Notes under the pieces: model-generated
Told to the model about the DNA's origin: nothing
Seen by the model: only the letters and a program-made list of their open reading frames with translations
Databases searched by the model: none
Part shown: piece by piece, positions 2,908 through 48,154 of the stretch
How positions within the stretch are numbered: the first letter of the stretch is position 1
How the letters are laid out: each line of letters begins with the position of its first letter
Made by a program: the position numbers and the translations under genes
From: Anaerolineales bacterium UBA6092
GTDB taxonomy: Bacteria > Chloroflexota > Anaerolineae > Anaerolineales > UBA4823
Length of the DNA: 64,000 nt
Assembly: GCA_002428565.1 (NCBI GenBank)
Contig: DIXA01000058.1
Coordinates: forward strand, 51,570 to 115,569
Reading direction: 5' to 3'

Positions 2908-3294
2908 ATGAACGAAGAATTAACAATTCTATATGTGGAAGACAATCCCGAGAACCGCTTGCTGGTTCGCCGGATATTAATGGCCGAAGATTTCAACGTT
3001 GTGGAGGCCGAGTCGGCAACCATCGCGGTGGATTACCTGAAAGAGAACCGGCCAGATTTAATTTTGATGGATATCAATATGCCGGAGGTGGACGGATATA
3101 CCCTGACTGCCCGCCTGCGTGAAAACTCGCGCCTGGATGGCGTGCCGATCATCGCGCTGACTGCCAACGTGATGAGAGGCGACCGCGAGCGCACGCTGGA
3201 AGCGGGCTGTGATGGCTATATCCAGAAACCGATCGATGTAGATCTGCTGCCGCAGCAGATCTTGCGCTTTCTGAAAGAGGTGGGTCGTGTCTGA
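2908..3294 (+). CDS. Single-domain CheY-like response-regulator receiver
   Basis: ATG 2908 is preceded by AAAGGG. The longer ORF-track start at 2701 would translate the palindrome and promoter region. Motifs: ILYVEDNPENR, acceptor Asp in DLILMDINMPEVDG, IIALTA, GYIQKP. No output domain. Confidence 0.88.
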   Translation: MNEELTILYVEDNPENRLLVRRILMAEDFNVVEAESATIAVDYLKENRPDLILMDINMPEVDGYTLTARLRENSRLDGVPIIALTANVMRGDRERTLEAGCDGYIQKPIDVDLLPQQILRFLKEVGRV

Positions 3295-3751
3295 TATCTA
3301 CTTCCAATCCTCCAACGATAACCCGCAAGGGACAACCCCGCGCAAGGATGTCATCCCCAAAGACGCCACCGTGCTGGTGGTGGAAGATAATGTGTCCAAC
3401 TTTGTGCTGATCGCACGCATGTTGGGCTACATGGGCATCCACTGCGAGTGGAAGACCTCAGGATATGAGGTGGTTGAGTATGCCGATACGCTGCCCCGGC
3501 TGGATTTGATCCTCATGGATATCCGCCTGCCCTATGAGGATGGCTACGGGGCTTTGCGCAAGATCCGCGCTTCACCTGCTTTGAAAGACACACTGGTGGT
3601 TGCCGTGACGGCTGAAGCCAGCGTGGAGCAGGTCAACAAGGCCAGGGCGGCTGGCTTTGACGGCTTCTTGGGGAAGCCCCTGGATATGGATCGTTTCCCA
3701 GAGCAGATCCGCCGGATTTTAGGCGGTGAGGCGGTCTGGGAGATGAACTAG
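3287..3751 (+). CDS. Single-domain CheY-like response-regulator receiver (second copy, about 25-aa N-terminal extension)
   Basis: GTG 3287 overlaps the upstream stop by 8 nt. Motifs: VLVVEDNVSN, LDLILMDIRLPYEDG, VVAVTAEA, GFLGKP. No output domain. Confidence 0.85.
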   Translation: MSDIYFQSSNDNPQGTTPRKDVIPKDATVLVVEDNVSNFVLIARMLGYMGIHCEWKTSGYEVVEYADTLPRLDLILMDIRLPYEDGYGALRKIRASPALKDTLVVAVTAEASVEQVNKARAAGFDGFLGKPLDMDRFPEQIRRILGGEAVWEMN

Positions 3752-3773
3752 GCAATGCAATTGGGAATGGCTT

Positions 3774-5975
3774 ATGCCCACACAAGAGAAATGCCCTTTT
3801 TGCAACCAGCCCATTGAACCAGAAGTAGAAACTTGCCCTCACTGCGGAAAGATGATCTTGGCTATCCCCGCGGGTGAGGTCCCCCCTTCCTCGATCGATC
3901 GACAATTTACCCCCGAAATGTTGGTGCACCGCCTGGGTGATTACCTGTTAGAGAGCGGTGTGATCAAGAAGAAAGATCTGAATCGGGCGTTGGAGTACCA
4001 GAAGGAACTGGCCCCTCAGCGGCATGTTTTGCTGGGCCAGGCTCTGTTGGAATTGGGGCTGGTGGACCGCGACACGCTGGACCAGGCTATCACCCGGCAG
4101 CTGCTCTCGCTGCAAAACGCGTTGATGGAGACCAACCGCCAGCTCGAAGACCGGGTGACACAGCGCACCAAAGACCTGGAGCGGCGGCTGGTGCAGATCC
4201 GCACCGCGGCAGATATCACTCAGTTGGCCATCTCGGCCTCCAGCCTGAGCGAGCTTTTACGCCGGGCGGTGGATCTGATCGTGGAGCGCTTTGAATACTA
4301 CCTGGCCTCCATTTTCGTGGTCGATGAGACCGGCGAGAATGCACTTCTTGCCGAAGCCAGCGGCAAAGCCGATAAGGATTTGATGTCGAAGGGAGTAAAG
4401 ATCGCAGCGGGCTCGCGCTCGATGGTGGGCTGGGTGCTGGTGCACCGCAAGCCGCGCGTGGCGGCAGAAGTGGACGACGATTACTTCTACCTCTCCAGCG
4501 ATCAATTGCACGAAACCCGCTCGGAGGTGTGCATACCGATCATGATGGGGGAGAACCTGCTGGGCGTGCTGGATGTGCAGCACAGCGTTACCAATGCCTT
4601 TGACCCCGACGCGGTGGCGGTGTTGCAGATCATTGCCAACCATATCGCCTCGGTGATGCAGAGTTTCCGCTTGCTAGAGACAACGCGCTCCAGCCTGAGC
4701 GAATTATCTTCGCTGTACTATGCCAGTTACCAGTTGGCCCGGGCAGAGAAGTTGGAAGATGTGACCAACGTGGTCACCACTCTCTTGGAGCAGTCGCCTT
4801 ATTTTGCCATGTTCCTGTTGCCCAAGCGCAACAACATGCAGGTGCTGGCGGCTTATACGCCAGGCTTGCCCGAATGGGGATTGAGCAGCAAGCCGCCGCA
4901 GTATCCCGAATCGCTGGAAGTGTTGCCGGCAGATATCAACCAGCTTTTTGCGCAGAAGGATGGCGGCCCGGTTACCACCACCCCTGGTGAGCCCTACCTG
5001 ATCCTCCACTCGATCGCCGATACGGAGCAGCCTGTGGTTGTGCCAGAGGCGCTGTTAGGCTTCCTGCGCCAGGCGGGTTACCAATCTGTGGCCCTCATCC
5101 CCAGCCGCCGCTCGGGTACGCTGGATACCCTGGTGCTGCTGGCGACGCCGCAAGTCACGGGCTTTTCCAACGGGGTTTTACAAGCCTATGCCAGTCTGGC
5201 AGAGCTTTCTGCCACCGCCCTGGAAAAGGTGCGCGCCTCACAGCGCATGCTCAAGCAAATGAATGCTCTGGCCACGCTGAACACGATCAGCCAGGCGGTT
5301 TCGGTTGAGACCGACCTGCAAACCCTGTACCAGGTGATCCATCGCGAAGTGATCGGGGTGATGGGCAACGTCAACTTCGCCATCGCCATTTACGATAAAG
5401 ACGCCGATACCATCACCGTCCCCTATATGTTTGATGGTAAAGATGTGAAAAACGTGCCGGCTTTCCCCCTGGGCGAGGGGATGACCTCGATCTTGATCCG
5501 TACCCGCAAATCGTTGATGCTGGTGGAAGATACCGAGCGCAAGACCCGCGAACTGGGCGCCAAGCTGGTGGGCAAGCCGGCCAAATCCTGGCTGGGCGTG
5601 CCGCTGCTGGTGGCTGGCGATGTGCTGGGGGCCATCCTGGCGCAAGACCTGGAACGCGAGGGGCGCTTTGACGAGGACGATCAGCGCTTGATGGAGACCC
5701 TGGCCTCGCAGGTAGCCGTGGCGGTGCGCAATGCCCGCCTGCTGGAAAGCACTTACCGGCAGGCCGAGCGCGAACGCCTGTTGTATGACATCACCAATAA
5801 GATCCGTTTCTCACCCGATATCGCCCATATCCTGGAGACGACCACCCGCGAACTGAGCCATGCTTTGGGTACGCGGCGGGCAACCATTCAACTGGGTCTG
5901 ACGCCCGACCAGCCGCCCCAGCCACCCGCAGAGACCCCTCCTCCCAACCAGCCGACCTCTGCCAGCAGTTCGTAG
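3774..5975 (+). CDS. Cytoplasmic zinc-ribbon / MshEN-like / S-helix / triple-GAF protein with the shared C-terminal tail; no output domain
   Basis: Domain order: CPFC...CPHC ribbon; RLGDYLLESGVIKKKDLNRALEYQ (MshEN-type motif); coiled coil with QRTKDLERRLVQIRTAA; A-type GAF (RFEYYLASIFVVDE...LLGVLDVQHSVTNAF); C-type GAF-like (LYYASYQLA...); B-type GAF (FAIAIYDKDADTITVPYMF...SWLGVPLLVAGDVLGAILAQD); tail ERERLLYDITNKIRFSPDIAHILETTTRELSHALG. No hydrophobic helices. Confidence 0.85.
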   Translation: MPTQEKCPFCNQPIEPEVETCPHCGKMILAIPAGEVPPSSIDRQFTPEMLVHRLGDYLLESGVIKKKDLNRALEYQKELAPQRHVLLGQALLELGLVDRDTLDQAITRQLLSLQNALMETNRQLEDRVTQRTKDLERRLVQIRTAADITQLAISASSLSELLRRAVDLIVERFEYYLASIFVVDETGENALLAEASGKADKDLMSKGVKIAAGSRSMVGWVLVHRKPRVAAEVDDDYFYLSSDQLHETRSEVCIPIMMGENLLGVLDVQHSVTNAFDPDAVAVLQIIANHIASVMQSFRLLETTRSSLSELSSLYYASYQLARAEKLEDVTNVVTTLLEQSPYFAMFLLPKRNNMQVLAAYTPGLPEWGLSSKPPQYPESLEVLPADINQLFAQKDGGPVTTTPGEPYLILHSIADTEQPVVVPEALLGFLRQAGYQSVALIPSRRSGTLDTLVLLATPQVTGFSNGVLQAYASLAELSATALEKVRASQRMLKQMNALATLNTISQAVSVETDLQTLYQVIHREVIGVMGNVNFAIAIYDKDADTITVPYMFDGKDVKNVPAFPLGEGMTSILIRTRKSLMLVEDTERKTRELGAKLVGKPAKSWLGVPLLVAGDVLGAILAQDLEREGRFDEDDQRLMETLASQVAVAVRNARLLESTYRQAERERLLYDITNKIRFSPDIAHILETTTRELSHALGTRRATIQLGLTPDQPPQPPAETPPPNQPTSASSS

Positions 5976-5987
5976 CAGGAGTAGCGT

Positions 5988-7688
5988 ATGAAGCGTTCAT
6001 TCTACCGCCGACAGGTACCCCCCAGCCGCCAGGTTGCTGTTGAAGAAAAGAAAAGCAGCCTGGAAGAATTGCGCTTGCGTATCATGAACGTGATGCTTTA
6101 CGGGGCAGTCACCGTGGGGCTGATCGCGGTCATTTCAAACCTGATGACGGATATTCCCCAGGGCAACTGGGGGGTGATTGCGGTCTACGCGGTGGCCTAT
6201 GCTGGGCTGCTGGCGGTCACCTTTTTCCGGCGGTTGCCGTTTGACGTGCGAGCGTATGGTTTGACGCTGCTGCCATATCTTTTGGGCGTGACCGCGGCGG
6301 TGCAAGATGGCATTGCCGGGAACGGGCGGGTGTGGATGCTGCTTTCGGCCGGGTTGGCCAGCATCTTGTTGGGGCCGAGGGTGGGGGTTGGGTATCTGCT
6401 CTTGGGCACAGCCACGCTGCTGGGCATTGGCGGGGCGTTCAGCCAGGGCTGGCTGCCGCTCCCCGATGAGGCGTTGATCCCCTCGGCGGCACATTTTTCA
6501 GATTGGCTGGGAACCGGCTCGGTGTTCCTGCTGACGGCCTTCACTATTGGCGTCTCGCTGAGCGTGTTGATCCGCGGCCTGGATACAAGCCTGCAGAAAG
6601 AGCAGGCTTTAGCCAGCAGCCTGGCTTTTGACCAGCAGCAACTGGATGACCGCACACATGAACTGGACCGCCGCCTGGTGCAGATCCGCACTGCGGCGGA
6701 GATTTCCCGCACCCTCAGCGGCGTGTTGGACCCAAATCTGCTGCTACAACAAGTGGTGGACCTGGTGCGCCAGCGTTTCAGCCTGTATTACGTGGCTGCC
6801 TTCCTTATTGATGATCTTGGCGAATACGCCGTGCTGCGGGCGGGCACGGGCGAGGCTGGCTCGAAGATGATCGCCGCAGGTCACCGCCTGCCGGTTGGCG
6901 GGGCCTCGATGATCGGCTGGACGATTGCGAACCGGCGGCCGCGCATTGCCCTGGATGTGGGCCAAGACGCGGTGCGCTTTAGCAACCCGCTGCTGCCGCA
7001 GACGCGCTCTGAGATGGCCCTGCCTCTGGTCAGCGGCGAGCAGGTCTTTGGGGCGCTCTCCATCCAATCGGTGCAGGCTGAGGCCTTCGACGAAGATGAT
7101 GTGGCGGTTTTGCAGGGCATTGCCGATAGTCTGGCAACCGCCCTGCAGAACGCGCGCTTATTCCAGCAGTCGGCGCAAAGCCTGGATGAGATCCGAGCGC
7201 TGAACCGCCAGTATGTGGCCGATGCATGGAAGGAAATCTCGCAGCAGCCGGGGGTATCTCAGGCCAGCCATGAGAATGAACTATACAGTGGGTCGGTGGA
7301 AGGCTTGCGTGTGTTGCCGGTGCCGCTGACCCTGCGCGATCAGGTGATCGGTCAGTTGCTGTTGGAAACGGATCGAACCACTCTCACACCGGAAGAGCTG
7401 AACTTTATCGAACAGGTGACCACCCAGGCTGCCCTGGCGATGGAAAACGTGCGCCTGCTTGAGGAGACCCAGCGACGCGCCGGGGAAGAGCGGCTGTTGG
7501 TGGATGTGGTACAGAAAGCGCGTTCCTCTGCGGACATTGAATCGATCTTGCGCATCACCATCAAAGAGCTGAGCAGTGCCTTAGGCGCCTCGGAGAGCGA
7601 AATTTACCTGGCGCCTGCTTACGCACTGCAGGAGCAGCCCGGCGGCAATGGCTACCAGGACGGGGCGGAGGGAGGTGAAGAGGCATGA
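5988..7688 (+). CDS. Membrane (about 5-6 TM) S-helix-GAF receptor, no HAMP and no output domain
   Basis: The N-terminal 200 aa are hydrophobic helices. Then come the coiled coil DRTHELDRRLVQIRTAAEISR, an A-type GAF (RFSLYYVAAFLIDDLGEYAVLRAGTGEAG...VFGALSIQSVQAEAF), the half-GAF LPVPLTLRDQVIGQLLLE...TPEELNFIEQV...ENVRLLEE, and the tail GEERLLVDVVQKARSSADIESILRITIKELSSALG. Confidence 0.85.
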   Translation: MKRSFYRRQVPPSRQVAVEEKKSSLEELRLRIMNVMLYGAVTVGLIAVISNLMTDIPQGNWGVIAVYAVAYAGLLAVTFFRRLPFDVRAYGLTLLPYLLGVTAAVQDGIAGNGRVWMLLSAGLASILLGPRVGVGYLLLGTATLLGIGGAFSQGWLPLPDEALIPSAAHFSDWLGTGSVFLLTAFTIGVSLSVLIRGLDTSLQKEQALASSLAFDQQQLDDRTHELDRRLVQIRTAAEISRTLSGVLDPNLLLQQVVDLVRQRFSLYYVAAFLIDDLGEYAVLRAGTGEAGSKMIAAGHRLPVGGASMIGWTIANRRPRIALDVGQDAVRFSNPLLPQTRSEMALPLVSGEQVFGALSIQSVQAEAFDEDDVAVLQGIADSLATALQNARLFQQSAQSLDEIRALNRQYVADAWKEISQQPGVSQASHENELYSGSVEGLRVLPVPLTLRDQVIGQLLLETDRTTLTPEELNFIEQVTTQAALAMENVRLLEETQRRAGEERLLVDVVQKARSSADIESILRITIKELSSALGASESEIYLAPAYALQEQPGGNGYQDGAEGGEEA

Positions 7689-9628
7689 GCATTCGCACAC
7701 GCTTGGTGCTGACTCTGGTTTTGGTCGGCCTCATTCCGCTCTTGATCACGATTGTGTACGCCAGCCAGTCCATGAATGAAATGGTCTCGCAGGCTGAAGT
7801 GACCACCCGAGAAGCTCTGGAACTGGCTGCCAGGCAGTCGGTGCGCCAGTCGGCTTACTCGGTGGCGCGGCAGATCCGCCTGTACCTGGATCTGCACCCC
7901 GAGTTGGATGCGAATGATCCGGAGGCATTGCAGGCTGACCCTGGCCTGACCCAGATTGCTGTTCAAGCGGTGGGAAATTCTGGCTACAGCGCGGTTTTCG
8001 ATGAAAACGGCGTCACCCGTTTCCACACCAACGCGGCTCTGGTGGGGCAAGATCTTTCCAGCCTGGCAGAAACGCTGCCCGATTTCTGGGCGATCTACGA
8101 GTCCGCGCTGGATGGCTCTCCGGCAGAGGGCAATTACGATTGGCTGGAGGCAGATGGCACCATCCGCCCCAAATATATGGTTGTTGCGCCCGTGCAAGGC
8201 ACTGCCTTGCGTGTGGCGGCGACAGCATACTTAGATGAGCTCTCGGCGCCAGCGCTTACCGTGGCAGATAAGCTAAGCCTATTGTCTGGCGATTCGAACC
8301 TGCGCTTGTGGTCAATTGGCCTGGTGAGCACTGTGGTGGCTGCGGGGCTGGCGGTGTATATTGGCACCCGCCTCGCCCAGCCTTTGGCCAAGATGGCCGC
8401 GGCTGCGGAGCGGGTCGCCGAGGGCGATTGGGAGTCCATCCGCCCGCTGCCCGAGCGCACCGAACTGGGCGCGCTCAGCCGTTCTCTGTATACGATGACC
8501 AATCAACTGCGCAGCACGCAGGAAAACCTGGAGAAGCAGGTGAGCACCCGCACCAAAGAATTGACCCGCCGCACCAGCCAGCTGGAAGCGGCCGCAGAAG
8601 TGGCCCGCGAAGCCTCTGCCATCCGGGATATGAGCCGCTTGCTCAACCAGGTGGTTAACCTGGTGGCTGAGCGCTTCGATGTGTATCACGTGGGCATCTT
8701 TTTGGTGGACGAAGCCCGCGAATTTGTGGTGCTGAATGCCGCCAACAGCGAAGGCGGGCGGAAGATGCTGGAGCGCGAGTATAAACTACGGCTGGGTGGA
8801 GAAGGAATGGTGGGCTGGGTGGCCAAGGCCGGCCAGCCGCGCATCGCTTTTGATGTGGGCGCCGACCAGCACTTCGTCCGTGACCCAGAACTGCCCCAAA
8901 CCCGTTCTGAAGCCACGCTGGCCCTGCGCATCCGTGAGCGGGTGATTGGCGTGCTGGATGTGCAATCGTTGCAGGCTTCGGCATTCACCCCAGATGACCT
9001 GGGCGTGCTGCAGATTGTGGCTGACCAGATTGCCCTGGCGGTGGAGAATGCCCGCCTCTTCGAATCCAGCCAGCAGGCCCTGCAGGCGATGAACCGCCTG
9101 TACAGCCGTGAGTCGCAAGATGCCTGGCAGAAACGCCTGGGCGATCGTCCCGTGGCGTTTCGCTACACGCGCATGGGCACCCAGATGATGACCCCTCAGG
9201 ATTCTCGCCAGGAATTGGCGGAGACCAGCCAGGTGCGCACCGACCCGGCAAGCGGCATGCATGAACTGCTGGTGCCGGTGGCCTTCCGCGGCCAGGTGAT
9301 GGGCCAATTGAAGTTGCGCCGGGATGCCGACCAGATGGCCTGGACCGCCGCGGATATGGATATTGTGGAGCAGGCGGTGGCGCAGATCGTTCCGGCGCTG
9401 GAGAATGCCCGCTTGCTGGAGGAAGTGCAATCCAGAGCAGCGCGCGAGCAAATGGTGAACGTGATCACCGGCCGGGTGCGCAGCTCTATTACCATGGAAA
9501 CGATCTTGCAGAACGCCGTGCGCGAACTGGGTATGGCTTTGGGGGCGTCTCGCACCTTCGTTCAAATCGGTTTAGACCAAGAATTGGCAGATCAGAACCC
9601 AGAAGGAGGCTTGGATGAAAGCAAATAA
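7685..9628 (+). CDS. TM-periplasmic(Cache-like)-TM-HAMP-S-helix-GAF receptor, no output domain
   Basis: ATGA overlap with the upstream gene. Two TM helices flank a roughly 190-aa extracytoplasmic domain. HAMP (PLAKMAAAAERVAEGDW...LGALSRSLYTMTNQL); S-helix VSTRTKELTRRTSQLEAAAEV; A-type GAF (RFDVYHVGIFLVDEAREFVVLNAANSEGG...VIGVLDVQSLQASAF); half-GAF with AWTAADMDIVEQ; tail AAREQMVNVITGRVRSSITMETILQNAVRELGMALG. Confidence 0.87.
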   Translation: MSIRTRLVLTLVLVGLIPLLITIVYASQSMNEMVSQAEVTTREALELAARQSVRQSAYSVARQIRLYLDLHPELDANDPEALQADPGLTQIAVQAVGNSGYSAVFDENGVTRFHTNAALVGQDLSSLAETLPDFWAIYESALDGSPAEGNYDWLEADGTIRPKYMVVAPVQGTALRVAATAYLDELSAPALTVADKLSLLSGDSNLRLWSIGLVSTVVAAGLAVYIGTRLAQPLAKMAAAAERVAEGDWESIRPLPERTELGALSRSLYTMTNQLRSTQENLEKQVSTRTKELTRRTSQLEAAAEVAREASAIRDMSRLLNQVVNLVAERFDVYHVGIFLVDEAREFVVLNAANSEGGRKMLEREYKLRLGGEGMVGWVAKAGQPRIAFDVGADQHFVRDPELPQTRSEATLALRIRERVIGVLDVQSLQASAFTPDDLGVLQIVADQIALAVENARLFESSQQALQAMNRLYSRESQDAWQKRLGDRPVAFRYTRMGTQMMTPQDSRQELAETSQVRTDPASGMHELLVPVAFRGQVMGQLKLRRDADQMAWTAADMDIVEQAVAQIVPALENARLLEEVQSRAAREQMVNVITGRVRSSITMETILQNAVRELGMALGASRTFVQIGLDQELADQNPEGGLDESK

Positions 9629-10631
9629 GTGGCTTGGGATTTTCTTAGTGTTGGTGATGGTGGCTGGCCTGGCGGCAGGTTGCAAGACTACACCAGAGGC
9701 CACCGCCGTCGCGCCAGATCAGGTCACCTTGCGGCTGCAGTGGGTGACCCAGGCGCAGTTTGCCGGTTACTATGTTGCCCTGGACAAGGGCTGGTACGCC
9801 GATGAGGGGATCGACTTGACGATTAAACCGGGCGGCCCCGATCTGATCACCACCGACCTGGTGGTGAATGGCACCGACGATTTTGGCACCGCCCTGCTGG
9901 CAGATATTATTGCTGCCATCCAATCGGGCAAACCGTTGGTTAGCATCAGCCAGATCCAGCAGAGCAACGGTTTGATGCTGCTGGCGATGAAATCTTCAGG
10001 CATTGAAGGGCCACAAGATTTCGTTGGCCACAGCGTGGGTGTGTGGCTGGGCAACTGGGAAGCTCAGTTCGATGCGCTGATGTTCAAGGAAGGCATTGGC
10101 GCGGAAGATTACCAACTCGTTTCACAGGGCTTCAGCATGGATGCCTTCATCTCCGGCGAGCTGGATGTGGCCTCGGCGATGATCTACAACGAGTATTACA
10201 GCGTGCTGGAAAGCGGCATCAGCGCGGAGGATATCAACATCATCGACTATGCGGATTACGGGCTGGATTTCCCCGGCGACACCCTGTTCACCTCTACCCG
10301 GTTGGCCGAAGAGAACCCCGACCTGTGTGCCCGCATGGTGCGCGCCAGCCTGCGCGGTTGGCAGTACGCCGTGGAGAACCCCGACGAAGCGGCAGATATT
10401 GTGCTCAAGTACGATACAAGCGGCGCGCAGACCATTGCCCACCAGCGCTCCATGATGTATGAGATCGCCAAACTGGTGCAGGTTTCGGTGCGCCCGCTGG
10501 GGTACACCGACCGGGATAGTGTCCGCCGCACCATTGATACCTTATTCAACTATGGCGTTTTGAGCAGCCCCATCGAGCCAGATACGGTCTTCAACAACAC
10601 GTTCTGGGAGCAGGCGCAGGTGCAACCATAA
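9615..10631 (+). CDS. Solute-binding lipoprotein, NMT1/THI5 (SsuA/TauA/ThiY-like) family; orphan (no ABC permease or ATPase nearby)
   Basis: AAGGAGG lies 5 nt upstream of ATG 9615. Lipobox LAAGC. LRLQWVTQAQFAGYYVALDKGWYADEGIDLTIKPGGPD is typical of the family. The start lies 14 nt inside the upstream receptor gene. Confidence 0.8.
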   Translation: MKANKWLGIFLVLVMVAGLAAGCKTTPEATAVAPDQVTLRLQWVTQAQFAGYYVALDKGWYADEGIDLTIKPGGPDLITTDLVVNGTDDFGTALLADIIAAIQSGKPLVSISQIQQSNGLMLLAMKSSGIEGPQDFVGHSVGVWLGNWEAQFDALMFKEGIGAEDYQLVSQGFSMDAFISGELDVASAMIYNEYYSVLESGISAEDINIIDYADYGLDFPGDTLFTSTRLAEENPDLCARMVRASLRGWQYAVENPDEAADIVLKYDTSGAQTIAHQRSMMYEIAKLVQVSVRPLGYTDRDSVRRTIDTLFNYGVLSSPIEPDTVFNNTFWEQAQVQP

Positions 10632-10664
10632 AGATGATTTCTTGGGTCAGGAAGGTGTAGCGCA

Positions 10665-13097: not shown

Positions 13098-13110
13098 ATT
13101 TGGGAATCTT

Positions 13111-18841: not shown

Positions 18842-18906
18842 TGTACGCAGCCCGTTGAGTGGTGCCCCAAACTTACACCACGGGCTGCAAACAGGAAGAT
18901 GAACCT

Positions 18907-20433: not shown

Positions 20434-20492
20434 GGAGTTGCCCGTGAAGAGACAAGTTGTGGATCTCATTTGTGCAAGGGACGGAGGCGCGT

Positions 20493-32701: not shown

Positions 32702-40918
<8,217 letters not shown>

Positions 40919-40948
40919 TCCGTGAGCGAAACGGAGGAAAGAAAGATC

Positions 40949-42640
40949 ATGCCATCTCACGTTATGGTTGAATGCCTGGACTGCGGGCATCGTGCGCCAT
41001 TTGTACCGGCTTCGGTGGCCTGCCCCTCTTGTGGCGGGCAGTGGCGAGAAGCGCGCTATCCCTATGACACCCTGAAGGCTACGCTGCCCGACCTGTTCCG
41101 CGCGCGGCCTTTCGATCTTTGGCGTTACCGCGAAGTGCTGCCCGTGCAGGGGCCAAACCCGCTGATCAGCATGGGCGAGGGAGGCACGCCGCTGATCCAT
41201 GCTGCCAACCTGGGCATGATGCTGGGCTGTCCGCATATTTTTATCAAAGATGAGCGGCAAGGCCCCACGGCGTCTTTCAAGGACCGCCAGGCTGCCATCA
41301 GTATCGCCGCGCTGAAAGATGCCGGGATCACCGAAGCGGTGCTGGCTTCGACCGGGAATGTGGCGATTGCTTACTCGGCTTACGCGGCCCGGGCGGGCAT
41401 CAAGCTGTGGACCTTCCTGACCAGCCTGGTGCCGGCTGAAAAGATGCGCGAGGTGGCGATCTACGGCTCGCAGGTGGTGAAGGTGACCGCCTCGTATGAC
41501 CAGACCAAGCAAGTGGCAGCTGAGTTCGCCCGGCAGCGCGGCCTGTACCTGGAGCGCGGCTCGCGCTCGATCCCTTCAGTGGAGGGGATGAAAACCATTG
41601 CGTATGAGCTTGTGGAACAACTGACGGATATCTTTGGGCCGCCCATCCCGGCAGAGAACCATGCTTCCTCGCGCTATGTCTGGCGGGCGCCAGATTGGTA
41701 TGTGCAGGCGGTCAGCGGCGGCTTAGGGCCGCACGGGGTGCAGAAGGGCTTTGAAGAGCTGTACCAGATGGGGCTGATCGACCGCCTGCCTGCCATGGCC
41801 AATATCCAGACGGACGGCTGTGCGCCGATGGTGCACGCCTGGCGCTTGGGCCAGGATACGGCTGATCCGATCCGCTCGCCGCGCACGCACATTGCCACAC
41901 TCTCCACCGGCGACCCCGGGCGCACTTATACCCTGCTGCGCCAGCGCATGCTGCAAGGCGGCGGTGGCGTCTTTGAGAGCGTAACCGACGAGGAGGCTTT
42001 CCGCACCATTCATATCCTGGCAAAGATGGAAGGCCTTTCGGTAGAGCCGGCCGCGGCGGTGGCCTTTGCGGGAGTGGTCAAGATGGTGCGGGCGGGCGTG
42101 ATCAAACCCACCGATGTGGTGGCGGTGAACTGCTCGGGCCACACCATGGCGATCGAGAAAATGATCCTGGGCGAGGGCTGGTCGCGGGATGTGGAAGTCT
42201 CGGCAGAGGTGATGCGCGATAAGCCGGAGGAAGGCTTGTTGGCGGCATTGAGCCGGGTGACCTCCGAGCGCTTCCCGCGCGTGGCGATTGTGGATGATAC
42301 ACCCGATGCGCGCCGCCTGATCCGGCGCATCTTGCAGGCCCAGGGCGATTACGTACTCTCAGAGGCCTCCAATGGGCATGAGGCGCTGGAGCTGGCGCGG
42401 CGCGAACACCCCGACCTGATCATCCTGGACCTGATGATGCCAGAGGTGGATGGCTTCACGGTGTTGGATCAACTCAAGGGCGATCCGCAAACCGCCTCGA
42501 TCCCGGTGATCGTTGTTACGGCGAAGGAACTGACCACGGAGGAGAAAGCGCGCTTACAAGGCCGTATTCACTCGTTGATGCAGAAGGGGGAATTCATGAA
42601 CGATGAATTTCTTGATGAAGTGATGACGCTGTTAAAGTAA
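40949..42640 (+). CDS. Threonine-synthase-like PLP-dependent enzyme (PALP fold, N-terminal zinc ribbon) fused to a C-terminal response-regulator receiver
   Basis: ATG 40949 has GGAGGA 9 nt upstream; GTG 40922 is an alternative start. Ribbon CLDCGH...CPSCGG. PLP-lysine motif PTASFKDRQA (Lys codon 41279-41281). ASTGNVAIAYSAYAARAGIKLWTFL. Receiver from about 42278: VAIVDDTPDARR, DLIILDLMMPEVDG (Asp codon 42428-42430), VIVVTAKELT, LMQKG. Confidence 0.82.
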   Translation: MPSHVMVECLDCGHRAPFVPASVACPSCGGQWREARYPYDTLKATLPDLFRARPFDLWRYREVLPVQGPNPLISMGEGGTPLIHAANLGMMLGCPHIFIKDERQGPTASFKDRQAAISIAALKDAGITEAVLASTGNVAIAYSAYAARAGIKLWTFLTSLVPAEKMREVAIYGSQVVKVTASYDQTKQVAAEFARQRGLYLERGSRSIPSVEGMKTIAYELVEQLTDIFGPPIPAENHASSRYVWRAPDWYVQAVSGGLGPHGVQKGFEELYQMGLIDRLPAMANIQTDGCAPMVHAWRLGQDTADPIRSPRTHIATLSTGDPGRTYTLLRQRMLQGGGGVFESVTDEEAFRTIHILAKMEGLSVEPAAAVAFAGVVKMVRAGVIKPTDVVAVNCSGHTMAIEKMILGEGWSRDVEVSAEVMRDKPEEGLLAALSRVTSERFPRVAIVDDTPDARRLIRRILQAQGDYVLSEASNGHEALELARREHPDLIILDLMMPEVDGFTVLDQLKGDPQTASIPVIVVTAKELTTEEKARLQGRIHSLMQKGEFMNDEFLDEVMTLLK

Positions 42641-43581
42641 TGCGCAATAAAGGGCTTTACGCTGCACTCGCCTCGGCTGTATTTTTGGGTATGGCGCCCG
42701 TTTTTGGCAAGTACGCCATTAGCGTGGGCATGCCGCCGATGGGCGTGGTGGTGCTGCGTACTTCCCTGGCAGCCCTGCTGCTGCTGGTGGTGCTGCTGAT
42801 CTTCAAGCGGTCGTTTTTGTTTATCTACCCGGCTGGGCTGCTGGGCTGCATGCTGGCAGGCGGCATTAATGGGCTGGGCTCTATCTTTTACTACACTGCC
42901 CTGGGACGGATCGATGCCAGCCTGGGACAGCTGCTATATTCGCTTTACCCGCTGTTTGTGGTGCTCTGGCTGTGGATGGATCACCAGCCGCCCAGCCGCT
43001 TGACCATCTTCCGCCTGGGGCTGATCATCCCGGCGATATACCTGCTCACCTTTACCCGCCATCAAGTGCTGGATATCCCCGGGGTGCTGATGATGCTGGC
43101 GGCCTCGATCTTATATGCGCTGCACCTGCCCATCAACCAGCGTGTGCTCCTGGATATGCCCGCGCCCACGGTGACGTTCTACACCCTGCTGGCGATGAGC
43201 CTGGTGGTTGCCCCGGCATACTTCTTCTTCAGCAATTCGATCGGGGGCAGCCTGAATGCGGCCTGGGGCGCGGTGCTGGGCCTGACCCTGGTCACTTTCC
43301 TTTCCCGGTTGACGCTGTTCCTGGGTGTTAAGCACCTGGGAGGGGCGCAGACGGCGCTGCTGGGGTTGGGTGAGCTGCTGGTGACGCTGGTGGTGTCCCA
43401 TTTGTGGCTGGATGAGCGCCTGAGCCTGGCGCAGTGGGTGGGCGCGCTGCTGCTGGCGGTCAGCTTGGGGCTGATCGCTATGGAAAAGCCGGGGCCGCGC
43501 AAGTACTCTCGCGGCGGCTGGCTGAGCTGGCTGCGTCCTCCGGGCATTCCCAAGGATATCGCCTGGCCGCCAGGCTCGTAA
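42640..43581 (+). CDS. EamA/DMT-family 10-TM transporter
   Basis: TAATG junction with the upstream gene. Two EamA-like halves (ALASAVFLGMAPVFGKYAI..., ...AASILYALHLPINQRVL...). About 10 hydrophobic helices. Confidence 0.8.
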   Translation: MRNKGLYAALASAVFLGMAPVFGKYAISVGMPPMGVVVLRTSLAALLLLVVLLIFKRSFLFIYPAGLLGCMLAGGINGLGSIFYYTALGRIDASLGQLLYSLYPLFVVLWLWMDHQPPSRLTIFRLGLIIPAIYLLTFTRHQVLDIPGVLMMLAASILYALHLPINQRVLLDMPAPTVTFYTLLAMSLVVAPAYFFFSNSIGGSLNAAWGAVLGLTLVTFLSRLTLFLGVKHLGGAQTALLGLGELLVTLVVSHLWLDERLSLAQWVGALLLAVSLGLIAMEKPGPRKYSRGGWLSWLRPPGIPKDIAWPPGS

Positions 43582-43615
43582 CATTCTGGACGGGTTCTAA
43601 ACAAGGAGGCGTGCA

Positions 43616-46600
43616 ATGCAGTGTGCAGCATGTGGAACCATAAACCCCACCCAGGCGCGTTTTTGCATGGGTTGTGGATTGCGCCTGACGGCTGGAGTGG
43701 TGTGTGGAGCGTGTCATACCCTGCTGCCGCCACAGGCGCAGTATTGCTACAACTGCGGGCAGTATGTGGGCAGCGCAGGCGCCGCGCTGTCTGGTGTTCC
43801 GTTCAATGCGGGCAGCTACGTGGCCGCCCCGCCACCGCCGGCGGCCCAGCCGGGTAGGGCCGCGCCGGTGCAGGCTGCTCAACCCGCGGCGCCCATCGCC
43901 GCTCAGCCAGCCGCCCAGGCCGTGGCGCAAGCTGCGGCGGAGTTTATTGCCGCCCAGGCCGTTTCTGCCTCTCCTGCCGCCCCTGATGAGCACCAGGTGG
44001 GCGTGCTGCCCCCCGCCAAGAAACTGGAAGAGCTGCGCGAGGCCCTGGAACCGTTCCTGACCGAAAAGCTTTACGGTCCATTGCAACGCCGTCCCAACCA
44101 GCAACAGATTGAGGCTGCCCGCGACCATCTGAAATCGATGCTGGAAACAGCCAAGACCTACCTGCCGCAGCCGGTCATTGTTTCGCCGCAGCCGGGCGGC
44201 GTGCCTGCCGGGGGCATGTACCTGGGTGCGTTCCTGTTTGTGGATGTTTCGGGCTTTACCCCGCTCTCTGAACAACTCAAGAAAGAAGGCCAGGCCGGCG
44301 CCGAAAAGATCGTTCAGATCATCAACGGCTTGTTCACCGAACTGGTGCGGGTGCTGTTTGACCACGGCGGCACGCTGCTGAAGTTCGGCGGCGATGCCAT
44401 GCTGGGGCTGTTTCAGGCCGCGGATGAGGTTGAACTGCGCGCCAGTGTGGTGCGCGCGGCCCAGGCCGCCCTGGCGATGCAAACCGTGATGCAGGCAGAG
44501 CGCTTCGCGTCCATCCAGGCGGGCGGAGAAACACGCACCCTGAAAGTGAAATGCGGCATCTCCTCCGGGCGCTATTTCGCCGCTCACATTGGCACACCAG
44601 AAATGATGTCTTTTGTCACCACCGGGCACACGGTGAACCGGGCCGAGCAAGCCGAGGGCCATGCCGAGCCAGGGCAGGTGGCCATGCTGCGCGAATCCTA
44701 TGATCTGGCCCAGGATGTGCTCGAAGTGGGCCCGGCAGAAAAAGAGCCCGATGAGAGCTACGTGCGGCTGCTGAATGTGCCGCCGCTGGCAGACAGCTCG
44801 GCGCGCTTCTCCCTGCCCGAGCCGCCCGATGGCGAGCTGATGGCGCAGCTAACCTACCTGACCGAGCGGCTGGCGCGCCTGCGTCCCTACCTGCCCGGCG
44901 AGCTGGTGGACCGCATCAAGAGCAACCCCGATACGGCGCACATTGCTCCAGATCATCGCCCGGTAACGGTGATGTTTGCCAATTATGTCGGCATCAGCGA
45001 TCTGATCCAGGATATGGGCGACAGCGAACCTGGCATCATCGTGCAACAGTTGAATGATTATTTTGTGCACATGGCGAAAATTGTCAGCCAGTACGAGGGC
45101 ACCCTGGCGCGCATGGATCAGTACGCCGTGGGCGACCGGCTGGTGATCTTCTTTGGCGCGCCGCGCGCCCATGAAGATGATCCTGTGCGGGCAGTTTCCA
45201 CCGCGTTGAGCATGCAGAAAGCCGTCTACGATCATTTCTCGGCCCTGCAAACGGTTTCGGGCATCTATCGTTTTCGCCAACGCATCGGGATCAACACCGG
45301 TCAGCTTTTTGCCGGGAATGCCGGCGCGCCGGATCTGCGCCAGGAATACACTTTGATGGGGGATGATATCAATATGGCAGCCCGCCTCATGTCTAAGGCG
45401 GGCTGGGGTGAAATCTACGTCAGCCGCAAGACCAAGGAACGCGTCTCGGCTTATTTTGATCTGGAAGATAAGGGCGAACTGAAGGTCAAGGGCAAGGAGA
45501 TTCGCATCCCTACCTACAAGGTGCTGGGGAAGCGCGGCGAAGTGGGGCAGACGCGCGGCCTGGCGGGTGGCGATTCGCCGCTGACCGGGCGCGGCGAGCA
45601 ATTGGCGCTGCTGGAGCACTGTGCCCAGAGTCTGCTGAACGGGCGCGGCCAGATCGTCTCCATCATGGGCGACAGCGGCCTGGGCAAGAGCCGCCTGACG
45701 CGTGAACTGCGGGCAGCCTTCTTTGCCAACCCGGAGGCCGAGAATGTGCGCTGGCTGGAAGGGCAGTGCATGTCCTTCTCAGAAGATATGAGCTATTTCC
45801 TGGCGGGGCAGATCGTGCTCAACCTGCTTGGGCTGGGTCCCGAAGACCGGCAGGAGGATGTGCTCTTCAACTTGTGGGAGATGGGCGAGGATCTGCTGGG
45901 CAAGGAAACGGCGCGCGAAGCCGTTCCCTTCCTGGCCAATATGCTGGGGCTGGAGCTGAAAAGCGAATGGGCAACCTGGGTGCACGAGCTGGACCCCAAA
46001 GTGCGCCTGAAACAGATCTTTTGGGCGGTGCGCGAGTTCTTTGCCGCGGCCGCGCGCAAGCAGCCCCTGGTCATCAGCCTGGACGATCTGCACTGGGCCG
46101 ACGAGAACTCGCTGGAGCTGCTAGCTGACCTGATTTCGATCAGCAACCGGGTGCCGGTGATGTTCGTCTTCGTTTTCCGCCCCATGCGGCAGAAGGGCTG
46201 CTGGACCTTGCACGAGGCAGCCGAAGAGAACTTGCACCACCGCTACACGGCGCTGGAGCTGGTGCCGTTGAGCCGCAGGCAGAGCGAGGAGATGTTGGGA
46301 CAATTGCTGCCTGGCGCCGAGCTGCCCGTTGAGGTGGTAGATGAGATATTTGCCAAATCGGCTGGCAACCCCTTCTACCTGGAAGAGGTGGTGCGCTCGA
46401 TAATGGATAGTGAGGCTGTCGTGAAGGTCAGCGCGGAGGGGGAGCCGGCGGAGTGGCGTTTCGACCCAAGCAAGTCTGGTGAGCTGCGCGTGCCCGACAG
46501 CCTGCACAGTGCCATCATCGCCCGGATTGACCGGTTGACCGAGGATGCGCGCCAGGCGCTGCAAATGGCGGCGGTGATCGGGCGGCAGTTCCAAAGCGAG

Positions 46601-48154
46601 CTGCTGCGCCACCTGGCGCATGCGGAAGCCGAGTCGAGCATTATGCTTGACCAGTTGGAACAGCATAAGCTCATCCGCCCGCTTGAAATGAGCATGGATG
46701 AGACCTTTATCTTCCCCGATGCGCTGGTGCAGGAAGTGGCCTATGAGAACCTGCTGATGCAGCGCCGCCAGGAATTCCACCTGAAGATTGCTCAGGCGCT
46801 GGAAGATTCGCTGGGCGAGCGATCTGAGGAGGAGTGCGCCTTGCTGGCGCACCATTACAGCCGCAGCTCGGATAGTAAGCGGGCCTTGCGCTACCTGGAT
46901 ATGGCTGCGCAGCGTGCCCAGGCAGCCTTTGCCAACGAAACTGCCATTTTGATGTACACGCGCCTGCTTGAAATCTTGGGCGACTCTCCCGAAGAGTGGG
47001 AGCGACGCTTTGCAGTGCTGATGCAGCTCCAGCGCGTCTATGGCATGGCAGGACGCCAAAAGGAGCGCGAGGGGCGGCTGAACGAGATGCGCCAGATCGC
47101 TGAGACGCACAGCGATGAGAACCGCCTGGCTGATGTGTTGAATGAGCTGGCTGACCTGTGCGGTTGGACCGGCCGCTACGACGAGGCGATTGCCGCCGCC
47201 GGGCAGGCGCTGGAGATCAAGGTGCGCTGCGCAGACCCGGCTGGGCAGGCCATGGCGCTGCACCAGTTAGGCGTGGTGAGCTATTACCGCAACGATTATG
47301 GCCCTGCTCGCGAGCACCTCACCAAAGCCGTGGCGCTGCGGCGCGAGCTAAATGATGCCGATGGCTTGTTGTGGAGCCTCATCTACAATTACATGATCTA
47401 CTTTATGACCGGCGAGTACGACCAGGCCATCACCTTGAATACCTCGGCCCTGGAGACAGCCCGCGCTCGCCAGGACTGGTTCCAGATCGGCATTCAGCTG
47501 ACCAACGCCGTGCGCATCAACCTGCGCCTGGGCGAGTATGAGCTTGCCGAAGAACAGCTCAAGGAATCGTTGGAGATGAAGACGCGCGTGGGCGACCGCA
47601 TTGGGCAGGGCTTTGCCCTCTTTGCCATTGGGTTGGCGAACCAGGCCCAGGGCAAGCTGGTCGAGGCGCGCCAGGCTTTCGAACAGTCGTTGGAACTGCG
47701 CCAGGTGATCGGCGACCGGCGTGGGGTGAGCTACTCCACCCAGGGGCTGGGACTGGTGGATCTGGACGAGGGCAATTTCGCCCAGGCTGCCGAGCGGCTG
47801 CGCCAGGCGTACGAGCAGCGCCAGGAGCTGGGCCTGAAGGGCGAGGCCCTGGCGGACCTGTCTTTCTTGAGCCAGGCGCTGCTGGGCAGCGGCGATACCG
47901 CGGGCGCACTCCAGGCTTCGCAGCAGGCCATGGATGGGCTGACAAGCGGCATCAAGGTGGAGGAGGTGCAGAATGTTTATCTCCATCACTACCGTGTGCT
48001 GTCACAATCAGGCCAGCCGGGCGCACAAGAAGCGCTGGCGGCGGCCCGTCAGGTGGTGCTCAGCCAGGCCGAGTGTATTGCCGATGAACATATGCGCGAG
48101 CGCTTCTTGAGCAAGGTCAAGGTGAACCGGGAGATCATGGCGCTCTCGCAGTAA
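43616..48154 (+). CDS. Double zinc-ribbon / two class-III nucleotidyl-cyclase domains / AAA(STAND, AAA_16-like) ATPase / TPR protein (1512 aa)
   Basis: AAGGAGG lies 6 nt upstream. CAACG...CMGCG and CGAC...CYNCG ribbons, then an Ala/Pro-rich linker. CYC1: FLFVDVSGFTPLSE...LKFGGDAMLGLF. CYC2: VTVMFANYVGISD...YAVGDRLVIFFGAP...LMGDDINMAARL. P-loop IMGDSGLGKSRLTREL. Walker B LVISLDDLHWADENSLELL. C-terminal TPR-like repeats (RALRYLDMAAQRAQ..., ALHQLGVVSYY..., GFALFAIGLANQ...). Confidence 0.85.
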   Translation: MQCAACGTINPTQARFCMGCGLRLTAGVVCGACHTLLPPQAQYCYNCGQYVGSAGAALSGVPFNAGSYVAAPPPPAAQPGRAAPVQAAQPAAPIAAQPAAQAVAQAAAEFIAAQAVSASPAAPDEHQVGVLPPAKKLEELREALEPFLTEKLYGPLQRRPNQQQIEAARDHLKSMLETAKTYLPQPVIVSPQPGGVPAGGMYLGAFLFVDVSGFTPLSEQLKKEGQAGAEKIVQIINGLFTELVRVLFDHGGTLLKFGGDAMLGLFQAADEVELRASVVRAAQAALAMQTVMQAERFASIQAGGETRTLKVKCGISSGRYFAAHIGTPEMMSFVTTGHTVNRAEQAEGHAEPGQVAMLRESYDLAQDVLEVGPAEKEPDESYVRLLNVPPLADSSARFSLPEPPDGELMAQLTYLTERLARLRPYLPGELVDRIKSNPDTAHIAPDHRPVTVMFANYVGISDLIQDMGDSEPGIIVQQLNDYFVHMAKIVSQYEGTLARMDQYAVGDRLVIFFGAPRAHEDDPVRAVSTALSMQKAVYDHFSALQTVSGIYRFRQRIGINTGQLFAGNAGAPDLRQEYTLMGDDINMAARLMSKAGWGEIYVSRKTKERVSAYFDLEDKGELKVKGKEIRIPTYKVLGKRGEVGQTRGLAGGDSPLTGRGEQLALLEHCAQSLLNGRGQIVSIMGDSGLGKSRLTRELRAAFFANPEAENVRWLEGQCMSFSEDMSYFLAGQIVLNLLGLGPEDRQEDVLFNLWEMGEDLLGKETAREAVPFLANMLGLELKSEWATWVHELDPKVRLKQIFWAVREFFAAAARKQPLVISLDDLHWADENSLELLADLISISNRVPVMFVFVFRPMRQKGCWTLHEAAEENLHHRYTALELVPLSRRQSEEMLGQLLPGAELPVEVVDEIFAKSAGNPFYLEEVVRSIMDSEAVVKVSAEGEPAEWRFDPSKSGELRVPDSLHSAIIARIDRLTEDARQALQMAAVIGRQFQSELLRHLAHAEAESSIMLDQLEQHKLIRPLEMSMDETFIFPDALVQEVAYENLLMQRRQEFHLKIAQALEDSLGERSEEECALLAHHYSRSSDSKRALRYLDMAAQRAQAAFANETAILMYTRLLEILGDSPEEWERRFAVLMQLQRVYGMAGRQKEREGRLNEMRQIAETHSDENRLADVLNELADLCGWTGRYDEAIAAAGQALEIKVRCADPAGQAMALHQLGVVSYYRNDYGPAREHLTKAVALRRELNDADGLLWSLIYNYMIYFMTGEYDQAITLNTSALETARARQDWFQIGIQLTNAVRINLRLGEYELAEEQLKESLEMKTRVGDRIGQGFALFAIGLANQAQGKLVEARQAFEQSLELRQVIGDRRGVSYSTQGLGLVDLDEGNFAQAAERLRQAYEQRQELGLKGEALADLSFLSQALLGSGDTAGALQASQQAMDGLTSGIKVEEVQNVYLHHYRVLSQSGQPGAQEALAAARQVVLSQAECIADEHMRERFLSKVKVNREIMALSQ

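Follow-up and report, generated by a model that had tools for sequence, protein, structure and literature searches.

A Conserved Anaerolineae Operon of Ten GAF Receptors, a ParA-Type ATPase, and One Multi-GAF Hybrid Kinase: a Candidate Two-Component Pathway with Split and Multiplied Sensors

How could ten receptors that carry no output domain produce a response? The question is raised by a unit of ~45 kb (positions 2908-48154, + strand) in DNA from an uncultured Anaerolineales bacterium. The window, meaning the whole stretch of DNA that was analyzed, is 64,000 nucleotides (nt) long, and all positions are counted within it. The unit encodes ten receptors built on GAF domains, one soluble hybrid histidine kinase, a ParA-type ATPase, and a receiver-fused pyridoxal phosphate (PLP) enzyme followed by a transporter. 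With moderate confidence, we read it as a two-component pathway in which sensor and kinase are split into separate genes, the sensors have been multiplied, and signals pass by the mechanism proposed below; the pathway appears to be conserved in Anaerolineae. Members of this class are abundant in anaerobic digesters, activated sludge, and sediments. Few have been cultured, and their physiology is poorly known.

Open reading frame (ORF) calling placed 20 intact ORFs between 2908 and 48154, all on the + strand. The genes that carry the argument are listed here with the evidence for each assignment. Receivers are abbreviated REC, transmembrane helices TM, and hidden Markov models HMM.

2908-3294 (+): stand-alone REC, 128 aa (Response_reg, 1e-29).
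3287-3751 (+): stand-alone REC, 154 aa (Pfam).
3774-5975 (+): receptor, soluble; zinc ribbon, transmitter GAF, extra GAF, reduced GAF, terminal cap helix (Pfam, alignment, HMM, hydropathy).
5988-7688 (+): receptor, MASE11 membrane type with the common tail (Pfam, alignment, HMM, hydropathy).
7685-9628 (+): receptor; TM, small Cache-like loop, TM, HAMP, common tail (Pfam, alignment, HMM, hydropathy).
10665-13097 (+): receptor; TM, loop, TM, HAMP, tail, extra full GAF, terminal second cap (Pfam, alignment, HMM).
13111-16032 (+): receptor; ~7 TM, dCache, TM, HAMP, common tail (Pfam, HMM, hydropathy).
16025-18841 (+): receptor; ~7 TM, dCache, TM, HAMP, common tail (Pfam, HMM, hydropathy).
20493-22730 (+): receptor; TM, dCache, TM, HAMP, common tail (Pfam, HMM, hydropathy).
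23990-26272 (+): receptor; TM, dCache, TM, HAMP, common tail (Pfam, HMM, hydropathy).
26269-29076 (+): receptor; ~7 TM, dCache, TM, HAMP, common tail, the tail that was modeled (Pfam, AlphaFold2, HMM, hydropathy).
29069-31945 (+): receptor; ~6 TM, dCache, TM, HAMP, common tail (Pfam, HMM, hydropathy).
31942-32748 (+): Soj-like ParA/MinD ATPase with the motifs KGGVAKTT, DLDAQ, and LLDCPPS (Pfam, NCBIfam, PDB alignment).
32702-40918 (+): soluble hybrid kinase, 2738 aa; basic peptide, reduced GAF, 12 GAF, HisKA, HATPase_c, REC, REC.
32702-32770 (+): N-terminal peptide of the kinase, MSKRKPRSKSVRNRIESLFEDLG, proposed ParA-interaction tag (orthologue alignment).
38339-38827 (+): the single receptor-type transmitter GAF of the kinase, aa 1880-2042 (HMM).
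40949-42640 (+): fusion of a zinc ribbon, a ThrC-like PLP enzyme, and REC (PALP-REC), 563 aa, P0241 (Pfam, NCBIfam, PDB).
42640-43581 (+): EamA-family transporter, conserved partner of the PLP enzyme (Pfam, NCBIfam, synteny).

The start of the PLP enzyme is that of the database gene call (ATG at 40949, not GTG at 40922). The start of ParA is ambiguous, being either TTG at 31942 (a 4-nt overlap) or ATG at 31948.

The unit is tightly packed. The overlap is 4 nt at 7685, 22727, and 26269 and 8 nt at 3287, 16025, and 29069. It is 14 nt at 9615, 47 nt at 32702, and 1 nt at 42640. The widest intergenic gap is 72 nt and lies 5' of 23990. A first-pass annotation of this DNA had described 20 co-oriented genes, the same overlaps, the same widest gap, and a closing hairpin at 48163-48217. 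The ORF map, the ORF coordinates, and folding bear out all of these. The boundary elements are as follows.

2620-2738 (+): two perfect hairpins 3' of tRNA-Gly(CCC), the 5' boundary of the unit (z = -13.8).
48163-48217 (strandless): bidirectional terminator, a hairpin with a 26-bp perfect stem between convergent genes (-53.9 kcal/mol, z = -12).

The 5' hairpins lie at 2620-2666 and 2685-2738, with a folding energy of -82.6 kcal/mol for both together. The tRNA-Gly(CCC) gene (2537-2609) stands at the 5' edge of the unit and is served by a sigma-70 promoter at 2496-2524 (TTGACA-17-TATAAT, 12 of 12 consensus positions). Because the hairpins mark the 5' boundary, the operon promoter must be located in ~2740-2907. 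A regulatory RNA 5' of 2908 was ruled out; Rfam matches the tRNA only, and the remainder consists of the two terminator hairpins. Consensus scans found no promoter or terminator in the intergenic gaps inside the unit. The weak internal matches all lie within coding regions and are near chance level, and internal promoters and terminators were rejected. The layout suggests that the 20 genes are likely expressed as a single co-transcript. The GC content is slightly lower in the operon (0.56-0.62 over 2001-48000) than in the flanks (0.62-0.66). GC skew is positive along the entire unit.

The ten receptors lack a recognizable output. Their Pfam matches are limited to zinc ribbon, MASE11, dCache, HAMP, and GAF domains, and none matches the methyl-accepting chemotaxis protein (MCP) signaling domain (PF00015) at E <= 0.01. 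Nine of the ten are membrane proteins in a hydropathy scan; the receptor at 3774 is soluble. They are evident paralogues of each other. The first-pass annotation had described ten receptors without an output domain, and Pfam, a PDB profile search, and AlphaFold2 with Foldseek all agree with it. A hidden output domain in the tails was ruled out by Pfam, the PDB profile, and two AlphaFold2 models searched with Foldseek. Pfam and NCBIfam identify the + strand proteins as receivers, receptors, ParA, kinase, PALP-REC, EamA, a cyclase-STAND-TPR protein, a transporter, and two binding proteins. Pfam found no MCP signaling domain, CheA, CheW, CheR, CheB, Hpt, GGDEF, EAL, or DNA-binding domain in these proteins.

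Four receptors have a block of 6-7 TM helices 5' of dCache (13111-13950, 16025-16700, 26269-27000, and 29069-29750). The block has no Pfam match except a weak VIT1 match in one receptor. The same block is found in the fused receptor-kinase P0374 and in the kinase-less protein P0384, both described below.

What the receptors have in common is their C-terminus. All ten carry a tail of ~340 residues that contains a signaling helix (S-helix), a transmitter GAF, a reduced GAF, and a cap helix. Identity to the first tail in the alignment is 34-43% across all ten, and 26 columns are invariant. Nine of the ten have an xRT motif (S-helix, ERT type) in a predicted helix that connects HAMP to GAF. This signature is the one defined for S-helices between two signaling domains (PMC1592074). 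The receptors at 3774 and 10665 contain an additional full GAF, and the cap is still terminal in both.

The tail of the receptor at 26269 was modeled with AlphaFold2 from 75 sequences (mean confidence score, pLDDT, 86). The model contains, from N to C, the S-helix, a complete (transmitter) GAF, a long helix, and a four-stranded reduced GAF-like domain. It ends with a second long helix, a short cap helix, and a disordered terminus rich in acidic residues, Gly, and Pro. Foldseek with the whole model retrieved GAF and tandem-GAF structures only, and a PDB search with the tail profile retrieved GAF chains only. The final 188 residues, modeled separately (pLDDT 74), had no Foldseek match at E < 0.001. 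The cap sequence corresponds to the opening helix of another GAF, whose remainder is missing, and aligns to residues 11-58 of GAF chains (8W26, for example). An HMM built on the cap gives 58-70 bits at the C-terminus of every receptor and a single match of 28 bits in the kinase.

The tail family is large. It contains more than 1,292 clusters at E <= 1e-10. Only GAF, HAMP, or sensor domains occur among the matches listed at that threshold, and the named ones among those listed are mostly "GAF/HAMP domain-containing protein." An exhaustive search of public data with the tail profile gave ~22,500 clusters (50% identity) at E <= 1e-30, a figure that takes in multi-GAF giants, which rank first, and is not a clean receptor count. 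The fusion proteins described below came to light in this search. The cap HMM matches the C-termini of kinase-less proteins only, and fused kinases are unmatched. Tail and cap together are a candidate for a new kind of receptor-kinase docking module. Two further kinase-less proteins, P0366 and P0384, are 2,000-2,400 aa long, contain 7-11 GAF (several of the transmitter type), and are cap terminated. "Receptors" can therefore equal the kinase in length.

The kinase contains the counterpart of these parts. Its HisKA (4.5e-19) and HATPase_c (6.5e-28) domains match Pfam, and the sequence shows an H box (SHELRTPL) along with N, G1, F, and G2 boxes. It holds the sole HisKA/HATPase core of the + strand. 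The five receivers are distributed as two stand-alone, two fused to the kinase, and one fused to the PLP enzyme. Both statements had been made in the first-pass annotation, and the Pfam scan confirms them. All five receivers retain the acidic pocket (DD/ED), the phospho-acceptor Asp, the Thr/Ser, and the Lys, as read from the sequence. Run on the kinase, the HMM built from the transmitter GAFs of the receptors gives 171 bits for aa 1880-2042 and at most 35 bits for any other GAF. A GAF of this type scores at least 113 bits in 14 of 16 distinct orthologous kinases (11 of them at 167-192 bits) and usually lies immediately before HisKA. Transmitter GAFs of receptors and kinases are homologous throughout, with class-specific residues. 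Kinase aa 89-189 also match the final ~100 residues of the receptor tails, at 31-35% identity.

Two simple docking schemes were considered and set aside. One kinase GAF per receptor was rejected; receptor number does not track kinase length, and only one kinase GAF is of the receptor type. Complementation of a split GAF by the receptor cap and the kinase N-terminus is unsupported. The kinase has the same reduced GAF and not the complementary half, and the idea is further weakened by the presence of a PAS domain in this region in some orthologues.

Synteny ties the parts together. Related loci were taken from contigs of metagenome-assembled genomes (MAGs), 10 kb on each side of an anchor gene, with simple ORF calling. 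They were mapped by database gene calls and by our own ORF and BLAST comparison with window segments; the mapping is rough, and frameshifts break up some of the MAG genes. Many ParA relatives are 70-86% identical to that of the window. With one genome per species, the ParA clade (L008-L028) spans 43-82% identity and contains only MAGs labeled Anaerolineales, Anaerolineaceae, Anaerolineae, "Chloroflexia," and Chloroflexota. The next relatives are generic actinobacterial ParA proteins at 45% or less.

The core order is REC, REC, receptors, ParA, multi-GAF hybrid kinase, ThrC-like-REC, and EamA. Tail receptors adjoin ParA upstream in every locus with enough sequence. ParA is followed by a multi-GAF-HisKA-HATPase-REC(-REC) kinase in every locus that is long enough. 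PALP-REC lies 3' of the kinase in all 16 loci with enough downstream sequence (60-80% identity), and EamA lies 3' of PALP-REC in all 15 loci that reach that far (51-71% identity). The compact loci L016, L025, L026, and L028 begin with the same two receivers, and relatives of the 2908 receiver begin operons in these four as well as in L090 and L092. The receiver at 3287 is the best-conserved component, above the kinase core and ParA; it keeps 70-80% identity even where ParA has only 43-59%. Its conservation in L016, L025, L026, L028, and L092 hints at a highly constrained partner.

Three loci anchored on receptor homologues (L088, L089, and L090) are all receptor arrays, and two of the three have ParA and the kinase within 10 kb. 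L088 contains a receiver, six receptors, ParA, kinase, PALP-REC, EamA, and a convergent OmpR regulator. L090 contains three receivers, receptors, NMT1 and Peripla_BP_6 binding proteins, a MASE11 receptor, ParA, and kinase. L089 contains at least eight receptors. The first-pass annotation had named a lack of conserved synteny as grounds for refuting it; the order recurs in independent genomes, beyond what chance would give. The system occurs mostly in MAGs labeled Anaerolineales or Anaerolineaceae. In several MAG contigs (L009, L011, and L016), neighboring ORFs carry pieces of a single kinase, PLP enzyme, or receptor; these may be assembly frameshifts or real pseudogenes.

Two related loci, each from another genome, encode receptor and kinase in one chain. 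P0367 (2279 aa) contains TM, dCache, TM, HAMP, GAFs, PAS, HisKA, HATPase, and REC. Its locus, L092, has the order REC, REC (78% identical to the 3287 receiver), P0367, PALP-REC, and EamA, and it contains no separate receptor and no ParA. P0374 (2756 aa) contains ~7 TM helices, dCache, HAMP, the tail, GAFs, HisKA, HATPase, REC, and REC. It follows tail receptors and precedes PALP-REC in L091, a locus without ParA. The earlier proposal that many inputs converge on one kinase gains indirect support here, from receptor-kinase fusions that sit inside the REC-REC...PALP-REC(-EamA) core. As comparative evidence, the fusions and the common modules indirectly support a functional link between receptors and kinase. 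The loci can be arranged as a series from a fused receptor-kinase, through a partly split form, to the fully split form with many receptors and ParA. Such a series could show a one-protein sensor kinase evolving into a many-to-one network.

We propose the following mechanism. Receptor state would pass to the kinase by contact between homologous GAF modules, and because the receptors would signal through these contacts, the kinase could integrate many inputs. The kinase would phosphorylate all five receivers: both small ones, the pair that it carries itself, and that of the ThrC-like enzyme. Phosphorylation would gate the PLP enzyme, which would make or convert an amino-acid-like compound, and EamA would move its substrate or product across the membrane. 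ParA would bind the basic N-terminal peptide of the kinase and would space it, or recruit it, over the nucleoid in these filamentous cells. Co-sensing would fall to the Nramp transporter and the binding proteins, and the convergent OmpR module may open a transcriptional route as well.

Several observations weigh against this proposal. We infer contact and regulation between receptor and kinase from comparison alone. No Hpt domain was found among the 23 window proteins scanned. The orthologous kinases of L011 and L021 are without a high-scoring transmitter GAF. A PAS-like segment replaces the N-terminal reduced GAF of the kinase in L011, L013-L015, L021, and L088, so that this GAF is not a universal docking site. 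L017 has at least four receptors with a kinase of 1173 aa, compared with ten receptors and a 2738-aa, 12-GAF kinase in the window. Receptor number does not track kinase length, and docking of one receptor per GAF is therefore unsupported. Finally, a profile of the kinase peptide searched against the PDB retrieved no ParB or other ParA partner, only insignificant matches, so that the link between ParA and the kinase is drawn from pattern and context.

A more specific form of the proposal is possible but rather unlikely. Receptors and kinase would form a supramolecular complex held by GAF-GAF contacts, spaced by ParA on the nucleoid, and controlling the secretion of an amino-acid-derived compound. 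If so, the complex would be a functional equivalent of the chemoreceptor array with an independent evolutionary origin. The multi-GAF rod of the kinase would bridge nucleoid and membrane. The secreted compound would possibly be an intercellular signal or a cross-feeding metabolite of filamentous Anaerolineae.

Receptors and kinase could also be coupled without contact. Their transmitter GAFs would bind one small cytoplasmic molecule; the receptors would alter the free pool, and the kinase would read it. Across the paralogues, a large number of polar residues in the transmitter GAF (R, D, T, S, E, and Q) are invariant or almost so, as in a ligand pocket, and the closest folds of this GAF in Foldseek are small-molecule-binding GAFs (the cAMP-bound Lcd1 GAF, the PtsP GAFs, and fRMsr). 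Candidates for this molecule include a cyclic nucleotide and whatever the ThrC-like enzyme produces; a cyclase gene does lie at the operon end in this genome. It is, however, missing from all related loci examined. The transmitter GAFs of receptors and of kinases also show consistent differences at conserved sites; for example, where nine of the ten receptors have P-R and the tenth has A-R, kinases have P plus a hydrophobic residue. This speaks against a single, identical pocket. The fusion proteins suggest that the ancestral coupling was mechanical and intramolecular. We regard coupling by a shared ligand as improbable.

We give a similarly low probability to receptors that act independently of the kinase and serve as scaffolds, dominant-negative decoys, or regulators of ParA or of transporters. 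In that case, tandem duplication and common ancestry alone would lie behind their clustering. The receptors are clear paralogues, L089 has a long array without a nearby kinase, and P0366 and P0384 are long kinase-less multi-GAF proteins with a terminal cap, all of which would fit. Independence does not easily explain why the order receptors-ParA-kinase-PLP-REC, with its tight or overlapping junctions, persists over ParA identities of 43-82%. It also leaves the fusions that join receptor to kinase unaccounted for. Strong conservation of the cap at the end of every receptor implies that it has a conserved partner.

The output of the split pathway appears to be enzymatic. PALP-REC is 70-92% identical over 120 database clusters, a very high conservation. 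Its closest PDB match is a threonine synthase (2ZSJ, 2e-41), as are its top NCBIfam matches. EamA belongs to the same transporter family as the E. coli threonine/homoserine exporter RhtA. These facts would suit an enzyme that is the threonine synthase of the cell, with the system tuning threonine synthesis and export to nutrient signals and making no novel product. The details do not. The scores are below every ThrC equivalog cutoff (NF006050, 229 versus 303; TIGR00260, 137 versus 167). The PLP-lysine motif is kept, as PTASFKDR versus PTGSFKDR in four of five solved ThrCs (HTGSFKD in the Arabidopsis enzyme), and xxSFKDR was recovered in 117 of the 120 orthologues. The substrate motif is not kept. 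The five solved ThrCs have NSxNPxR(I/L)EGQKT in common (gapped in the Arabidopsis enzyme), and it is replaced by ERG(S/A)RSIPSVE(A/G/S)MKT here and in most of the 120 orthologues. The Asn, Ser, and Arg of the motif bind the phosphate of O-phosphohomoserine in Thermus ThrC. The enzyme also has an insertion of ~20 residues relative to canonical ThrC. From the scores, the replaced motif, and the insertion, we take it to be a member of the ThrC family that acts on another substrate and would be gated by its receiver; that it is simply the threonine synthase of the cell is improbable. The first-pass annotation had named ThrC-like-REC plus EamA as an output. The two do form a conserved output pair; a canonical threonine synthase identity fails on motif and scores. 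If our reading is true, a receiver-gated PLP enzyme with an exporter would be added to the known outputs of two-component systems.

The ParA protein aligns over its full length with Soj/ParA structures, including 8RAY and 1WCV. It contains the deviant Walker A motif (KGGVAKTT), retains the ATPase motifs, and matches AAA_31/CbiA (AAA_31 at 1.1e-47). The kinase start lies inside the 3' end of the ParA gene here and, by database gene calls, in L001-L003, L088, and L090; our own ORF calls give the same overlap with the ParA stop in the remaining loci. The kinase peptide is Lys- and Arg-rich, has the consensus MxKKKKLxxRLxSLFxDL, and is conserved in 14 aligned kinase orthologues. ParA/MinD ATPases tend to have partners that are encoded beside them and begin with a short, positively charged stretch (PMC7993993; bioRxiv 10.1101/2022.06.09.495121). 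Positioning of a sensory complex by a ParA has a precedent in PpfA with TlpT (PMC4085708). Sequence homology of the peptide to ParB or ParA partners was rejected, as the likeness is compositional only. L091 and L092, in which the kinase is anchored by fusion, have no ParA within the sequence examined. Judging from these two loci only, this fits a ParA role specific to the soluble kinase. If that role is true, a histidine kinase would join the known cargos of ParA ATPases. It is very unlikely that this ParA is an ordinary DNA-partition protein or a mobile-element remnant beside a tRNA gene, unrelated to signaling: it is Soj-like throughout, tRNA-Gly lies at the 5' edge, and operon GC is slightly under that of the flanks, but the window proteins scanned include no ParB-like domain, integrase, or other mobile-element gene, and ParA always lies between the last receptor and the kinase in many genomes, overlaps the kinase start, and is missing where the membrane kinase is anchored by fusion.

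The remaining genes of the unit are accessory.

9615-10631 (+): NMT1/SsuA-like periplasmic binding protein (Pfam, NCBIfam; an NMT1 protein also occurs in L090).
18859-20433 (+): Nramp-family transporter (NCBIfam, 136.5 bits; cutoff, 50).
22727-23917 (+): LivJ-like (Peripla_BP_6) binding protein (Pfam, NCBIfam; a Peripla_BP_6 protein also occurs in L090).
43616-48154 (+): zinc ribbon, nucleotide cyclase (Guanylate_cyc), STAND ATPase (AAA_16), TPR (Pfam).

The binding protein at 9615 is probably a ligand presenter. A search with window segments found no counterpart of the cyclase, STAND, or Nramp in any related locus examined, and the cyclase-STAND-TPR and Nramp genes are for this reason counted as accessory. 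The first-pass annotation had listed the cyclase-STAND-TPR protein among the outputs; it is a lineage-specific addition and does not define the system. Membership in the core was rejected for this protein, for Nramp, and for the two binding proteins, which recur in L089 and L090 only.

Three genes converge on the unit from the opposite strand.

48235-49062 (-): OmpR-type regulator (REC plus Trans_reg_C), conserved convergent neighbor (Pfam).
49059-50876 (-): REC-GAF-HisKA-HATPase kinase, conserved with the OmpR regulator (Pfam, synteny).
50800-53601 (-): multi-GAF histidine kinase, often conserved with the OmpR regulator and the REC-GAF kinase (Pfam, synteny).

The convergent OmpR regulator and REC-GAF kinase lie 3' of EamA in 13 of 16 informative species-level loci and also in L001-L004. 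The system had been described as having no DNA-binding regulator. This holds for the + strand but not overall, given the convergent regulator, and this module may provide a transcriptional output.

The rest of the window contains genes of other kinds. A 2496-aa ORF at 53845-61335 (+) encodes a Peptidase_S8 subtilase with five CarboxypepD_reg repeats, DUF4394, PEGA, and PKD. Its product is probably a giant secreted or cell-surface protease. The 875-aa antisense ORF at 53839-56466 is probably spurious and lies in GC-rich DNA. A 638-aa ORF without a Pfam or NCBIfam match (583-2499, +) directly follows a Bac_transf sugar transferase (31-582). GC content peaks in this region (0.65), where the AT skew is strongly negative. 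A MoxR-type AAA+ ATPase (AAA_3 plus AAA_lid_2; 62340-63347, +) lies near the window end. Its neighbors at 61384-62169 and 63215-63898 have no family match.

Full-text literature searches returned no description of the system, in keeping with the earlier statement that no system of this composition had been described. A review of nitrate sensors that mentions Chloroflexi deals with complete kinases (PMC8199190). Database names stop at "GAF domain-containing protein," "chromosome partitioning protein," and "threonine synthase." The system looks like one of the major sensory systems of Anaerolineae.

Its parts resemble several known systems. The PLP enzyme has the fold family (fold-type II PLP), the N-terminal zinc ribbon, and the PLP-lysine motif of ThrC and cysteate synthase. 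It differs from that family in its REC fusion, its replaced substrate motif, its sub-cutoff scores, and its constant pairing with EamA. Non-catalytic sensors that modulate separate kinases are represented by NreA, a GAF protein that acts on NreB, and by RetS and LadS, which act on GacS. These are single accessory proteins, whereas here there is a conserved array of membrane receptors with a dedicated homologous tail and a ParA. ParABS, McdAB, PomXYZ, and PpfA have in common with the present system a deviant Walker A ATPase. The gene of the presumed partner lies directly downstream here as it does there, and its product has a short, positively charged N-terminus that resembles theirs in composition. 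The presumed cargo here is a two-component histidine kinase, which is outside the cargo types in bioRxiv 10.1101/2022.06.09.495121.

Chemosensory arrays that ParA-like ATPases position (PpfA-TlpT in Rhodobacter sphaeroides and ParC-ParP in Vibrio) are similar in logic. They have receptors with varied inputs and one conserved cytoplasmic tail, a single kinase, small receivers (compare CheY), and a receiver-fused enzyme (compare CheB). They also have a ParA-family ATPase in the cluster, with a presumed partner that has a basic N-terminus (PMC4085708, PMC7993993). The present system has no MCP domain, CheA, CheW, CheR, or CheB. Its tail is GAF based, its kinase is a HisKA-type hybrid, and its output is a PLP enzyme and a transporter and not a motor. 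The first-pass annotation had called it analogous but not homologous to Che systems, and this stands: the logic is alike, and Pfam places its proteins outside the MCP-domain and CheA/CheW families. Hybrid kinases with the order sensor-HAMP-S-helix-GAF-HisKA-HATPase-REC contain all of the parts, and in L092 these parts are a single polypeptide. Here, sensor and kinase are separate genes, the sensor is present ten times and is cap terminated, and the kinase is soluble and paired with ParA. The system is a member of the two-component superfamily. That it is in addition an independent kind of receptor array we consider possible, on the unlikely side.

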